Assembly (NCBI GenBank): GCA_964016885.1
Contig: CAXHJY010001399.1
Location: 74,590-138,589, forward strand
Length of the DNA: 64,000 nucleotides
Direction: 5' to 3'
From: Eledone cirrhosa
Lineage: Eukaryota
A model generated the notes under the pieces. The model searched no databases, was not told the DNA's origin, and saw nothing but the letters and a program-made list of their open reading frames with translations. This document shows, one piece after another, positions 7,258 through 41,726 of the stretch. The first letter of the stretch is position 1; the number at the start of each line of letters is the position of its first letter. The position numbers and the translations under genes are program-made.

Positions 7258-7893
7258 AGGAAGGACCACCAAAAGATCGTAGAAGTTTTAGAGGGACCAC
7301 CAAAAGATTGCAGAGGCTTTAGAAGGACCACCAAAAGATCGTAGAAGTTTTAGAAGGACCACCAAAAGATCGCAGAGGCTTTAGAAGGACCACCAAAAGA
7401 TCGCAGAAGTTTTAGAAGAACCACCAAAAGATCGCAGAGGCTTTAGAAGGACCACCAAAAGATCGCAGAAGTTTTAGAAGGACCACCAAAAGATCGCAGA
7501 GGCTTTAGAAGAACCACCAAAAGATTGCAGAAGTTTTAGAAGGACCACCAAAAGATCGCAGAAGTTTTAGAAGGACCACCAAAAGATCGCAGAGGCTTTA
7601 GGAGGACCACCAAAAGATCGCAGAGGTTTTAGAAGGACCACCAAAAGATCGCAAAGGCTTTAGAAGGACCACCAAAAGATCGCAGAAGTTTTAGAAGGAC
7701 CACCAAAAGATCGCAGAGGCTTTAGAAGGACCACCAAAAGATCGCAGAGGCTTTAGAAGGACCAGCAAAATATCGCAGAAGTTTTAGAAGGACCACCAAA
7801 AGATCGCAGAGGCTTTAGAAGGACCACCAAAAGATCGCAGAAGTTTTAGAAGGACCACCAAAAGCTCGCAGAAATTTTAGAAGGACCACCAAC
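7258..7893. repeat. 31-bp minisatellite, ~20 copies
   Basis: Unit GAAGGACCACCAAAAGATCGCAGAGGCTTTA. Confidence 0.95.
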
Positions 7894-8055
7894 AGAAATC
7901 AATTTGCCGTAGATTTTAGAGGATTTGCACTTAGAATGCAAAGAGATGGAACAAATACTGCAAGGTATACCATCTGACACTAACAATCCTACCAGTCCAC
8001 TAACCTAGATGGGTTCTTTATTTACCAAACACCCTTCCTGTCTATAAATGACTGT

Positions 8056-8500
8056 TACCATTGACTATTACCAGTTTGAACTAGCTAGAGTTGACCATTG
8101 AATATTACCAGTTTGAACTGGCTAGAACTGACCATTAACTATTACTAGTTTGAACTGGCTAGAGTTGACCATTGACTATTACCAGTTTGAACTGGCTAGA
8201 ACTGACCATTAACTATTACTAGTTTGAACTGGCTAGAGTTGACCATTGACTATTACCAGTTTTAACTGGCTAGAACTGACCATTGACTATTACCAGTTTT
8301 AACTGGCTAGAGTTGACCATTGACTATTACCAGTTTCAACTGACTAGAACTGACCATTAACTATTACCAGTTTTAACCGGCTAGAGTTGACCATTGACTA
8401 TTACCAGTTTCAACTGGCTAGAACTGACCATTAACTATTACCAGTTTTAACCGGCTAGAGTTGACCATTGACTATTACCAGTTTGAACTAGCTAGAGTTG
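8056..8500. repeat. 36/37-bp minisatellite, ~12 copies
   Basis: Unit GACCATTGACTATTACCAGTTTGAACTGGCTAGA(ACT/GTT); internal hairpin CCAGTT.GAACTGG. Confidence 0.93.
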
Positions 8501-8814
8501 ATCAGCCTACACTCAATATGATTGTTTTCTACAAGAGATCAGCAACTGATGGGGATAAATGTAATGGCCATTAAGAAGTTGATCTTAGCAGAGATTTGGT
8601 AGAACTGGTAGAACTGGTAGAACTGGTAGAAGTGGTAGAACTGGTAGAACTACGTGATATACGAGTCATGTAAAAATCAAAGAAGAATCAACTCAGAGTG
8701 TTGCTGAATCATTGTACACAACCCGTAGTCTGATGACTGTGAATGTCTGATATAATCTTCATTGTATGTATGATACTCCCGAGGGAGTCGTAGGGACGCC
8801 ATATTGACATGTTT

Positions 8815-11997: not shown

Positions 11998-12789
11998 GAG
12001 TTTTAAATGGCTATTATGACTGTAACGATGTAATTATCCTAATGTTAATATTTTCTTTTTTATAAACTTATAAACATATTTTATCCCGTGATCGGAAGCT
12101 TGTGACAACTTATGTCGCCTATACGAGGGGGTGCTGATAAGTAAAAGAAAATACATGAGGATCAGTTAATTATGATTATTTTCAACACATTCGCCTCTCG
12201 GATTTACATACTTATTGCGGCGGTCCTTCAGTTTTTCTAAACCCTGTAAAAAGAACTCGCAATAAGGACTGACCCTTAGTTTCATTTATGGTGGTGACAT
12301 GTCGAATAAGTTTACTTACCAACATAGAATCTCTTTCTCCCCTCACTGTTATACACAGCTTCTTGGAGACATGACCTCAACTCTTTTAACCATTCTTGAC
12401 ATATTCTAATCTTATTAGATTTTCTCAGCAAAGCATAAACTTTGTTGTCTGTGGGAATGCAGCCGAAACTATTTCTCTTTATCTAGGGTACTAATCAGAT
12501 GCTTAACTAGGGTATGACAAGGATAGCACGTGTCATGGGGGGGGGGGGGTTTACATGTAGGGGGTGCCACTTGGACTAGAAGCACGTGCCATGGGGAGCC
12601 ACATGAAGGGGGCACCACTTGGACTAGGAGCAGGTTCTATTAAAGTCAAATAAACCTCGTCTGAGAGTAAAAAAAGAAACTCCTTCAGCTGTATGATCTG
12701 TCTCTATCATGGGTGAGAAACATTATGGTGGCTGGATCATTAAACCATTTATATAAATTATAAACCTCCATAGATTAAAATACAGTGCT

Positions 12790-13550
12790 GGGCAGGGGTG
12801 CAATTTCACAGCTTGCCATAGGGGCTATTTTACCTAGTTATGCCTCTGGACAGGGGCACAATTTCACAGCTTGCCATAGGGGCTATTTTACCTAGTTATG
12901 CCTCTGGACAGGGGCACAATTTCACAGCTTGCCATAGGGGCTATTTTACCTAGTTATGCCTCTGGACAGGGGCACAATTTCACAGCTTGCCATAGGGGCT
13001 ATTTTACCTAGTTATGCCTCTGGACAGGGGCACAATTTCACTGCTTGCCATAGGGGCTATTTTACCTAGTTAAGCCTCTGGACAGGGGCACAATTTCACT
13101 GCTTGCCATAGGGGCTATTTTACCTAGTTATGCCTCTGGACAGGGGCACAATTTCACAGCTTGCCATAGGGGCTATTTTACCTAGTTATGCCTCTGGACA
13201 GGGGCACAATTTCACTGCTTGCCATAGGGGCTATTTTACCTAGTTAAGCCTCTGGACAGGGGCACAATTTCACTGCTTGCCATAGGGGCTATTTTACCTA
13301 GTTATGCCTCTGGACAGGGGCACAATTTCACTGCTTGCCATAGGGGCTATTTTACCTAGTTATGCCTCTGGACAGGGGCACAATTTCACTGCTTGCCATA
13401 GGGGCTATTTTACCTAGTTATCCCTCTGGACGGGGGCACAATTTCACTGCTTGGCAGCCATAGGAGCTATTTTCCCTAGTTATATCCTCTGGGTAGGGGC
13501 ACAATGTCACTGCTTGCCATCGGTCGTATTTTCCCTAGTTATGCCTCTGG
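12790..13550. repeat. 58/59-bp minisatellite, ~13 copies
   Basis: Unit GGACAGGGGCACAATTTCACAGCTTGCCATAGGGGCTATTTTACCTAGTTATGCCTCT. Confidence 0.95.
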
Positions 13551-14678: not shown

Positions 14679-15541
14679 TGAAGACGTCTGGCCTAGTGGT
14701 TAGAGTGTTGGACTTACGATGGGTTCGATTTCTTGACCGGGTGATGTGTTAGGTTCTTGAGCCAAACATGTTTTCATGTTGCTCCATTATACTCAGTGGA
14801 GGCCTATGGCCTAGTGGTAAGAGTGTTGGACTTACGATGGGTTCGATTTCTTGACCGGGTGATGTGTTAGGTTCTTGAGCCAAACATGTTTTCATGTTGC
14901 TCCATTATACTCAGTGGAGGCCTATGGCCTAGTGGTAAGAGTGTTGGACTTACGATGGGTTCGATTTCTTGACCGGGTCATGTGTTAGGTTCTTGAGCCA
15001 AACATGTTTTCATGTTGCTCCATTATACTCAGTGGAGGCCTATGGCCTAGTGGTAAGAGTGTTGGACTTACGATGGGTTCGATTTCTTGACCGGGTCATG
15101 TGTTAGGTTCTTGAGCCAAACATGTTTTCATGTTGCTCCATTATACTCAGTGGAGGCCTATGGCCTAGTGGTAAGAGTGTTGGACTTACGATGGGTTCGA
15201 TTTCTTGACCGGGTCATGTGTTAGGTCCTTGAGCCAAACATGTTTTCATGTTGCTCCAGTATACTCAGTGGAGGCCTATGGCCTAGTGGTTAGAGTGTTG
15301 GACTTACGATGGGTTCGATTTCTTGACTGGGTCATGTGTTAGGTCCTTGAGCCAAACATGTTTTCATGTTGCTCCAGTATACTCAGTGGAGGCCTATGGC
15401 CTAGTGGTAAGAGTGTTGGACTTACGATGGGTTCGATTTCTTGACTGGGTCATGTGTTAGGTCCTTGAGCCAAACATGTTTTCATGTTGCTCCAGTATAC
15501 TCAGTGGAGGCCTATGGCCTAGTGGTAAGTGTGTTGGACTT
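14679..15541 (+). repeat. Tandem array of 118-bp SINE family 2 heads (7 full + 1 partial)
   Basis: GGCCTAGTGG recurs at 14690, 14808, 14926 ... 15516. Each full unit carries B box GGTTCGATTTC and the TTCTTGAGCCAAACA core. Confidence 0.9.
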
Positions 15542-25949: not shown

Positions 25950-26783
25950 AAACATAACATAAATATAAACTCTAGGCCGAAACATAACATAAAATATAAA
26001 CTATAGTCCGAAACATAACATAAAATATAAACTATAGGCCGAAACATAACATAAAATATAAACTATAGTCCGAAACATAACATAAAATATAAACTATAGG
26101 CCGAAACATAACATAAATATAAACTATAGGCCGAAACATAACATAAAATATAAACTCTAGGCCGAAACATAACATAAATATAAACTATAGTCCGAAACAT
26201 AACATAAAATATAAACTATAGTCCGAAACATAACATAAAATATAAACTATAGGCCGAAACATAACATAAATATAAACTATAGTCCGAAACATAACATAAA
26301 ATATAAACTATAGTCCGAAACATAACATAAAATATAAACTATAGTCCGAAACATAACATAAAATATAAACTATAGTCCGAAACATAACATAAAATATAAA
26401 CTATAGGCCGAAACATAACATAAAATATAAACTATAGTCCGAAACATAACATAAAATATAAACTATAGGCCGAAACATAACATAAAATATAAACTATAGT
26501 CCGAAACATAACATAAAATATAAACTATAGTCCGAAACATAACATAAAATATAAACTATAGGCCGAAACATAACATAAAATATAAACTATAGTCCGAAAC
26601 ATAACATAAAATATAAACTATAGTCCGAAACATAACATAAAATATAAACTATAGTCCGAAACATAACATAAAATATAAACTATAGGCCGAAACATAAACA
26701 TAAAATATAAACTATAGGCCGAAACATAACATAAAATATAAACTATAGTCCGAAACATAACATAAAATATAAACTATAGTCCG
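25950..26783. repeat. 31-bp minisatellite, ~27 copies
   Basis: Unit AAACATAACATAAAATATAAACTATAG(T/G)CCG. Confidence 0.95.
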
Positions 26784-40481: not shown

Positions 40482-40567
40482 TATATAGTAATAATAATAA
40501 ATGTGAATCCAAAGAGGGCTCGATAAGGGTGAAAGCAGCGATTCTTTGCTTAAACTTTAATCTGTTA

Positions 40568-40655
<88 letters not shown>

Positions 40656-40659
<4 letters not shown>

Positions 40660-41664
40660 CCGTTATATCGCGTGACTATCTCCCCCTCCGCCTTTTGGGA
40701 TTCTTTCTCACGTCGTGTAGACGCGTTCTTGAGACTAGTAAAATGAGGTATCCTCTTGATAAGTCGGCAGACCTCGCAGGGACTCTATATCTTTATGATG
40801 TATTGTTTTTGTTTATGCCACGAAACTACGTAGTCGAGGAATCTAGGAGCAGTTTAGGTATGATACATTTTATTACTAATTATATCTAAATGTTTCTTCT
40901 CTCTTCATAATGTATTTTTAACTCTGATACTGGTTCAGTCTAGTTCAACCGGATTGGTCTGTCCCAGTCATTCATTGAGCAACATCGGTGAAGTTGGCAC
41001 CCTTAACTCACGGTTGGGTGCGGATGCATTCATGTATATGTGTGTGTCCGCATGTATCTGTGTGTTTCTAAATATATTGTTAATAACTCCCTCTGGTCGA
41101 GCAATCTTTGAAGTGTGGGGACTGCTGGAAAGCTTCCATTACACATACTTCTCGCCCCCTTCACCACCTCTTCTACGGCTTCGATATAAATACCCCCTCC
41201 GCCTCCGTGGTATTTTCTTCGGGGTTATAAGAGGCTTAGCTCTGTTTCTCGACCGTTATATCGCGTGACTATCTCCCCCTCCGCCCTTTGAGATTCTTTC
41301 TCACGTCGTGTAGACGCGTTCTTGAGACTAGTAAAATGAGGTATCCTCTTGATAAGTCGGCAGACGTCGCAGGGACTCTATATCTTTATGATGTATTGTT
41401 TTTGTTTATGCCACGAAACTACGTAGTCGAGGAATCTAGGAGCAGTTTAGGTATGATACATTTTATTACTAATTATATCTAAATGTTTCTTCTCTCTTCA
41501 TAATGTATTTTTAACTCTGATACTGGTTCAGTCTAGTTCAACCGGATTGGTCTGTCCCAGTCATTCATTGAGCAACATCGGTGAAGTTGGCACCCTTAAC
41601 TCACGGTTGGGTGCGGATGCATTCATGTATATGTGTGTGTCCGCATGTATCTGTGTGTTTCTAA

Positions 41665-41671
<7 letters not shown>
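40656..41671 (+). mobile_element. Partial tandem (593-bp period) non-coding element with a hammerhead in each repeat; retrozyme/pLTR-like
   Basis: 40656-41078 is nearly identical to 41249-41671. HHRs at 40751-40840 and 41344-41433: TCCTC-TTGATAA-GTCGGCA../..TGCCAC-GAAAC-TACGTA-GTC-GAGGA. Both flanks are (TA)n. Confidence 0.8.

Positions 41672-41721
<50 letters not shown>

Positions 41722-41726
<5 letters not shown>

Follow-up and report, generated by a model that had tools for sequence, protein, structure and literature searches.

Is the 593-bp tandem repeat at positions 40,656 to 41,671 a retrozyme, i.e., a non-coding element released as RNA by paired hammerhead ribozymes, and how are its copies made? 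The question arose in the window, i.e., the whole stretch of 64,000 nucleotides of Eledone cirrhosa DNA that was analysed. A first-pass annotation of the letters alone had proposed that two hammerheads release a 593-nt monomer, which is circularised and reverse-transcribed by a Penelope-like element (PLE) RT.

Structure of the window copy

The direct repeat had a period of 593 bp. Positions 40656-41078 matched 41249-41671 over 423 bp with three mismatches (40693, 40698, and 40773), and a single-copy middle of 170 bp lay between them. Stop-to-stop frames in 40656-41671 were short, i.e., at most 134 aa, and none of the five frames scanned matched Pfam. The annotated repeat, the (TA)n runs on either side and the lack of a meaningful ORF were borne out. 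The description as a repeat with a unique middle was right about the repeat but not about the architecture, which consists of 1.71 units arranged head to tail, the 5' end being truncated, rather than of two terminal repeats. The window copy is a single arm terminating at End B (Table 1). Compared with the family consensus, six monomer sites differed, including the hot site 537, with G in both units.

Table 1. Features of the window copy. Monomer position 1 is the first base past the predicted cut.
Feature	Position in window	Strand	Remarks
Single-armed insertion, 1.71 units of the 593-bp monomer	40656..41671	+	monomer positions 414 to 243
(TA)n target, 5' side	40573..40656	.	1-base overlap with the truncated 5' end of the insertion
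(TA)n target, 3' (primed) side	41665..41723	.
Hammerhead 1, type I	40751..40840	+	stem I TCCTC begins at 40751; GUC ends at 40835, predicted cut after it
Hammerhead 2, same core	41344..41433	+	stem I TCCTC begins at 41344; GUC ends at 41428, predicted cut after it
Predicted 593-nt monomer RNA	40836..41428	+
End A, monomer ~72-80	41500..41508, again 40907-40915	+	fixed 3' end of the family, putative RT start site
End B, monomer ~235-245	41662..41671, again 41069-41078	+	second fixed 3' end of the family
Candidate TATA box, then GC-box-like motif	41185..41203	+	putative promoter, sequence only (as for next row)
Second GC-box-like motif	41273-41283 and 40680-40690		as above
A>G, monomer site 537	40779, also 41372 (both units)	+	recurrent, editing-like site

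The first hammerhead lies upstream of the TATA-like box. Because the first unit starts downstream of where that candidate box stands in the monomer, read-through transcription would be needed before the window copy could yield a monomer.

Hammerhead motifs

Both units carried the hammerhead core UUGAUAA (U3-A8) together with GAAA. Stem I of the first motif was 5 bp long (40751-55 with 40836-40, TCCTC/GAGGA), and stem III, ACTACGTAGT, was a perfect palindrome. Stem II, as read from the sequence, appears bulged and closed by G10.1-C11.1, with a long loop II hairpin. The self-complementary stem III and the GUC at each predicted cut site agreed with the annotation. The two hammerheads had been called identical, which was true of the core and stems, but one base differed in the loop II extension (40773 vs 41366).

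No hammerhead was found with Rfam, either at the gathering score in the window or at E-values up to 10 in the region. Therefore, the ribozyme assignment rests on motif anatomy. In the minimum free energy fold of the isolated hammerhead region, stem I and part of stem II formed and the catalytic fold was absent (z -1.62).

Distribution of the family in the genome

A 27-mer spanning the cut site had 1,805 exact matches genome-wide, and its reversed control had none, so the motif is not a chance occurrence. When the 3.0-Gb genome was searched, 1,663 candidates were obtained; the best of the 40 scored were 98-100% identical. Near-identical copies were located on many large contigs. This search had been suggested in the annotation as a check, and it recovered many dispersed copies and multi-unit arrays. 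An unselected sample, namely the first 100 of the matches to this motif on contig 1, gave 73 insertions with 107 arms, so approximately 1,300 insertions are expected in the genome as a lower bound. About 120 loci of the family were inspected in all. Eleven overlapping loci, eight of them from the unselected sample, were left out of the arm set, and L094, which holds two separate insertions, was excluded from variant counts.

The family is young, dispersed, multi-copy, and without LTR-type ends. Three subfamilies were placed 5, 12, and 48 sites away from the main consensus. In public contig runs of unstated kind, which came from three studies with three organism labels, the head-to-tail junction was present in four of four, and the 593-bp unit and its TA-joined ends also occurred in their contigs.

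Internal duplications or deletions were seen in six copies (L054, L063, L071, L080, L087, and L093). The rearrangements in L063, L071, L087, and L093 appear to join two similar GC-rich motifs at monomer ~358-369 and ~438-448.

The consensus unit has a G+C content of 43% (254/593), and the predicted 593-nt circle of the window copy (40836-41428) folds at -171.1 kcal/mol with 64% of bases paired (z -4.3, 60 shuffles). Despite its 48 differences, the oldest subfamily reaches -164.9; nulls with the changes placed at random gave -140.0 +/- 6.8, and none of the 25 was as low. Its fold is kept mostly through G-U exchanges; one two-sided long-range change (155-327) was found, and nine pairs were broken. 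The signal was weaker in the middle subfamily (2/25 nulls as low), and there was none in the youngest (15/25). Changes from A-U to G-U, which editing also yields, preserve pairing by mechanism alone, and this weakens the test. The apparent conservation of the modelled circle fold in the oldest subfamily is thus supporting but not decisive. For purifying selection on the hammerhead core, the signal was not significant: no subfamily change fell in 509-527 vs 1.8 expected.

Insertion ends and arms

The 3' ends of the arms were fixed. In the unselected sample, 101 of 107 arms stopped at one of two sites, A (~+80) or B (~+243), and then passed into (TA)n; the two sites are 163 nt apart. Two opposed arms were present in 34 of 73 insertions, i.e., A with B in 29 and A or B with another site in five, and like ends were never combined. 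The 39 single arms stopped at A (20), B (18), or elsewhere (1), and (TA)n was found just upstream in 29 of them. Among 20 more two-armed copies taken from selected sets, A was paired with B in 18 and, again, like ends were never paired.

The 5' ends were variable and spread round the monomer. The longest arm comprised 6.4 units and was itself placed within a fixed-ended insertion, and the insertion at L111 holds about nine units. Two clusters of 5' ends were recognized, at 379-394, approximately 30 nt past the TATA-like box (9/107 vs 2.9 expected), and at 536-549 (9/107 vs 2.5 expected). A transcription start at 379-394 was considered, but the partner arm extended further upstream in seven of nine two-armed copies; therefore, it is not a shared 5' end. 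The cluster at 536-549, like that at 379-394, suggests structural stalls. At first, 5' ends at 248-250 hinted that arms with end B span whole numbers of units, but a larger set did not bear this out.

A PLE frame directly upstream was found at none of 109 loci, and four loci had a match 488-876 nt away. At these loci, the unit does not occur only as the pLTR of a coding PLE, which the annotation had named as the competing case. Dispersed copies, multi-unit arrays, two fixed 3' ends, inverted second arms, and (TA)n targets, together with this absence of a directly upstream frame, support the proposed retrozyme mobilised by a Penelope-like RT. That PLE-type machinery inserts this non-coding family is nearly certain.

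A coding PLE of the same genome

The GIY-YIG search returned 10,596 candidates, of which 150 were scored, and 50 loci were inspected. At L151, a 938-aa frame with RT and C-terminal GIY-YIG matches and a CX4CXXC linker was placed between two U3-A8 hammerheads. By this linker, as described in part of PMC8557442, the family appears Neptune/Nematis-like. The motif of this coding PLE had 10,895 exact matches in the genome.

The copies of the coding PLE end approximately 76 or 142 nt past their own cut; of 17 adjacent two-armed copies, 15 combined the two ends. Shared with the 593-bp unit are a pyrimidine-rich end A and the TTTCTAA that precedes (TA)n at end B. Beyond such short end motifs, no DNA homology to the unit was found in the 50 GIY-YIG loci, save one inserted copy. 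A score of end motifs was tried for naming the partner, and the coding PLE was not singled out among 256 TA-adjacent ends, where other families scored equally. L151 shows that the insertion grammar belongs to PLE enzymes active in this genome, and it is itself a candidate partner only.

The 5' ends of the coding PLE lay at most 10 nt apart in 10 of 10 short two-armed copies, which were chosen for short spacing, and at most 30 nt apart in three of seven longer ones. They were placed upstream of the uncut hammerhead, and the template of the coding PLE looks linear.

In the short two-armed copies (L215-L224 of the coding PLE, G000:C1), the arms stop 56-95 nt upstream of the cut, often at -72. This shared stop may mark where transcription starts, or else a fixed 5' end on a linear template that was left uncut. 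Near PLE frames at L156, L160, and L164, hammerhead-like motifs whose cores are C3-G8 were also observed; they represent further ribozyme-bearing families.

The RNA template

The cut site was crossed at least twice by 24 of 107 arms, and seven times by one selected arm. Of 1,500 junction matches, the first 100 were read, and 99 were full length across the cut; the single exception had an 8-base deletion. The same stretch of the monomer was present in both arms of 51 of 54 two-armed insertions, and the 5' ends of paired arms were uncorrelated, i.e., at most 30 nt apart in 5 of 54 vs 5.6 expected.

Sequence variants were counted at 49 main-subfamily loci. Array-wide variants, which occupy every copy of a site in an insertion, comprised 31 A>G, 7 T>C, and 10 others (n = 48), whereas those private to one unit were nearly strand-symmetric (17 A>G and 31 T>C of 232). 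By site, array-wide changes affected 16 of 128 A and 7 of 211 T (p 0.002). Site 322, which was discordant in 13 loci with a one-strand skew, was excluded from the counts. Such a sense-strand A>G bias must arise on RNA or while RNA is copied, and A-to-I editing would be its simplest source. The neighbours of 16 A>G sites, with a 5' G in 1/16 and a 3' G in 7/16, seem to agree with the preferences of ADAR.

The hot A>G sites 107, 277, 436, and 537 occurred in mixed combinations, and A>G at 107, 340, 353, and 537 recurred on several subfamily backgrounds. When two arms were compared, a hot-site G was concordant in 22 of 30 cases and discordant in 8; comparisons within an arm gave 37 concordant and 10 discordant cases of 47. 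With all subfamilies pooled, GG and GA pairs at the four hot sites numbered 7/0, 5/1, 10/0, and 2/2; if units were edited independently, 11.0, 8.9, 14.9, and 5.6 GA pairs would be expected. A change borne on RNA and found in every unit implies that some step copied one unit many times. It is highly probable that one monomer is re-read in each insertion. Repeated crossing of the cut, array-wide A>G changes, and overlapping arms with uncorrelated 5' ends are explained by a circle, and a covalently closed template is probable.

The discordant hot-site cases run counter to this, as do two further points. The A>G events are not independent, as 107G is fixed in the youngest subfamily and 436G in the oldest. 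Moreover, L015 and L115 each carry one unit with the variants of another subfamily (two diagnostic bases).

The mixed units of L015 and L115 may come from template switching between RNAs or from gene conversion. At site 322 (window 41157), T and C were discordant between units in 13 loci of several subfamilies, with 17/69 on the genome + strand vs 9/78 on the other. This site may be a slip hot spot of the RT or an assembly artefact.

Possible traces of cleavage

Twenty-four matches had a base other than C before position 1, i.e., 15 substitutions and nine true 5' ends. At the control positions 8 and 585, true 5' ends numbered three of seven and four of 13; the small excess of nine over three and four has a conditional p of 0.05. 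Several of the nine cut-site junctions show microhomology. In the contig-1 sample, which favours cut-crossing arms, 5' ends did not accumulate at the cut (2/107 vs 2.0 expected).

Both arms reach position 1 at L186 and also at L191; between them lies a single additional base in one case and an 11-base duplication in the other. By rough arithmetic, the chance of two such double run-offs among about seven two-armed loci is approximately 0.002. Arms that begin exactly at the cut, including the double run-offs, suggest that cleavage may occur in vivo. They also suggest that a cut linear RNA may exist in vivo and would rarely be used as template.

Proposed mechanism

The 593-bp element is best read as a non-autonomous, Penelope-mobilised non-LTR retrozyme that is probably copied from a circle, and we give this reading a probability of roughly 0.7. 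A transcript over two hammerheads would be cut after each GUC, probably with the help of pairing between the stem III palindromes or of a protein. The 593-nt monomer would then be ligated into a circle and gain a small number of A-to-I edits. At a (TA)n run, both strands would be cut by a PLE protein that is probably dimeric, after which one DNA end would prime at A (+80) and the other at B (+243). Each RT would then move backwards along the circle and across the religated cut site, covering a distance that varies. Two cDNAs joined head to head would give a two-armed copy, and one cDNA joined to the flank would give a single-armed copy such as that of the window. Rarely, the template would still be linear and the RT would run off at the cut.

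A bolder version has about an even chance of being right. According to it, each insertion would be the record of a single molecule, i.e., one ADAR-edited germline circle read several times round by a dimeric Penelope RT, loaded 163 nt apart and from both sides of the DNA break, with the other strand displaced; rare copies would have frozen the linear cut intermediate. If this is true, RNA editing and not RT error would be the main source of new inherited variants, and edits on a non-coding circle would be written back into the genome in each cycle.

Alternative explanations

The copies might be made without any circle. A PLE could copy uncut linear multimers transcribed from a few DNA-expanded master arrays, with the hammerhead mostly idle. 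Uncut RNA is the main substrate of PLE in vitro, in the part of PMC11167929 that treats it, the coding PLE of this genome looks linear-templated by its coinciding 5' ends, and 5' ends of the 593-bp family do cluster just past the TATA-like box. However, that cluster is passed by the partner arm in most two-armed copies, and independent editing of the units of a multimer predicts mostly discordant pairs, whereas the observed GG and GA pairs were mostly concordant. Across the roughly 120 inspected loci, the longest arm, of 6.4 units, lay inside a fixed-ended insertion. We consider copying of uncut multimers unlikely. A cut linear monomer, on which the RT jumps from the 5' end to the 3' end of the same molecule, could also mimic a circle, and we hold this to be slightly less likely again. 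It would account for the run-offs precisely at the cut, of which one shows an added base and another an 11-base duplication, and for the one junction with a deletion across the cut. However, RT jumping usually leaves bases added or lost at the junction, and all other junctions read were full length. In addition, the text seen of PMC7229834 describes RtcB-ligated circles as the form in which retrozyme monomers build up in coral, mussel, and axolotl.

That the unit is the pLTR of some further coding PLE, with the arrays as its truncated 3' ends, is improbable. Among the features of pLTRs are U3-A8 hammerheads and two-site ends (PMC4209133 and PMC11167929, in the parts on pLTRs), and Xenopus retrozymes resemble pLTRs in the available text of 10.64898/2026.07.22.740005. 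However, no PLE frame stood directly upstream at the 109 loci, the four distant matches being hundreds of nucleotides away; the arms run on into more copies of the same unit, with up to seven cut crossings; and homology in the 50 GIY-YIG loci was confined to one inserted copy. Descent of the 593-bp unit from an extinct pLTR is likely, and it is compatible with a Penelope-mobilised retrozyme. A one-off local duplication, which the annotation had listed as a further competing case, or an assembly artefact has a negligible probability. The contig of the window is small and rich in microsatellites, but the 1,805 motif matches and near-identical copies on many large contigs argue against it, as do the unit, its TA-joined ends, and its head-to-tail junction (4/4 runs) in contigs of public runs.

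Comparison with known elements

The retrozyme that is copied by a PLE, probably from a circle, belongs to an element class already known, and the 593-bp family is new to it. Metazoan non-LTR retrozymes, in the texts available of PMC7229834 and 10.64898/2026.07.22.740005, are likewise non-coding head-to-tail units with one type I hammerhead per unit, a GC content under 50%, a strongly self-paired predicted circle, and a proposed mobilisation by PLE. Correspondingly, the 593-bp family has two or more successive units bearing type I motifs, is non-coding and dispersed without LTR-type ends, and has a stable predicted circle and a GC content under 50%. Its length of 593 nt is above the 170-400 nt of PMC7229834 and within the 51-972 bp of 10.64898/2026.07.22.740005. 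It differs in its U3-A8 core, and between the family and those available texts, short partial tandems, two fixed ends, and inverted second arms are found in the family only. Circles were shown for the metazoan retrozymes, in the same texts, whereas those of the 593-bp family are deduced from genomic traces. In Xenopus, eight of nine retrozyme dimers showed no cleavage in vitro, in the text available of Li, Clavereau and Pollet 2026 (10.64898/2026.07.22.740005).

The family also has the features of a non-autonomous PLE, i.e., two fixed internal RT start sites (101/107 arms) spaced 163 nt apart, partial tandems, 5' truncation, an inverted upstream arm, and a microsatellite target. The autonomous arrangement, an RT and GIY-YIG ORF between pLTRs, was found at none of the 109 loci. 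Partial tandems, inverted arms, and microsatellite targets are PLE traits in the passages seen of PMC8557442. In PMC4209133, as far as its accessible part goes, the U3-A8 variant is known from Schistosoma Cercyon, stem III is palindromic in PLE hammerheads, and stem II is bulged in the Penelope hammerhead of D. virilis. The accessible part of PMC11167929 (Frangieh et al. 2024) describes a PLE that cuts and extends both strands in vitro, with RT starts at two internal sites; there, hammerhead cleavage is dispensable, uncut RNA is the main substrate, and no RNA-seq reads were found to end at the hammerhead cut.

As these three sources describe PLEs with pLTR hammerheads, in the parts named, the 593-bp family agrees with them in the U3-A8 core, palindromic stem III, bulged stem II, partial tandems, inverted 5'-truncated arm, (TA)n targets, and two RT starts downstream of the cut. 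It differs in having no ORF, in the spacing of the starts (163 nt vs a tail of 30-40 nt), and in some copies that end at the hammerhead cut. The coding PLE of the same genome shares the U3-A8 hammerhead, the (TA)n targets, and two paired ends (+76 and +142). Unlike the 593-bp family, its own 5' ends tend to coincide, as for a linear template, its starts are spaced by approximately 66 nt vs 163 nt, and the two have no extended DNA homology.

Plant LTR retrozymes are superficially like the window copy. In the available texts of PMC7229834 and 10.64898/2026.07.22.740005, two hammerheads in direct repeats flank a non-coding circle of 600-1000 nt. However, those elements carry type III hammerheads, true LTRs with fixed termini, PBS, PPT, and 4-bp TSDs, whereas the 593-bp family has type I hammerheads and free, variable 5' ends.

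In the retrozyme literature, within the same two available texts, circles or a link to the pLTRs of PLEs are shown, and reverse transcription of the circle is proposed only. In the main texts of the leading matches of a literature search, the 593-bp family was unreported, and no account was found of editing marks or two-armed ends in retrozymes; the supplements of these papers, i.e., family lists and insertion models, may bear on novelty. The family has a meaning here as genomic evidence on the reverse transcription of a circle and on hammerhead cleavage. Its predictions are exact: a circle of 593 nt should exist, cleavage should follow one specified GUC, RT should begin at +80 and +243, and four particular sites should carry edits. 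As a young coding PLE family is present alongside it, rolling-circle target-primed reverse transcription can be put to a direct test. The spacing of 163 nt, compared with approximately 66 nt in the coding PLE, limits the ways in which the folded RNA can offer both start sites to the enzyme.

Other features of the window

Just left of the insertion, a short piece at 40485-40572 was found between TA runs. Both of its ends recur beside (TA)n in L155, L161, L162, and L165; therefore, it is probably a remnant of another TA-targeted family. A large inverted repeat at 41805-43195, with arms of 239 and 209 nt that are 98-99% complementary, is likely a two-armed insertion of another element.

Pieces of a PLE RT-like frame were observed at 54000-55610, with 58% identity to the L161 protein. 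They are flanked by an inverted repeat of 172-174 bp at 53571-53917 and 55690-56035.

Young minisatellite arrays were located at 7260-7896, 8057-8501, 12788-13550, 14689-15541, and 25950-26783, with periods of 31, 37, 58, 118, and 31 bp. The 118-bp unit looks tRNA- or SINE-derived.
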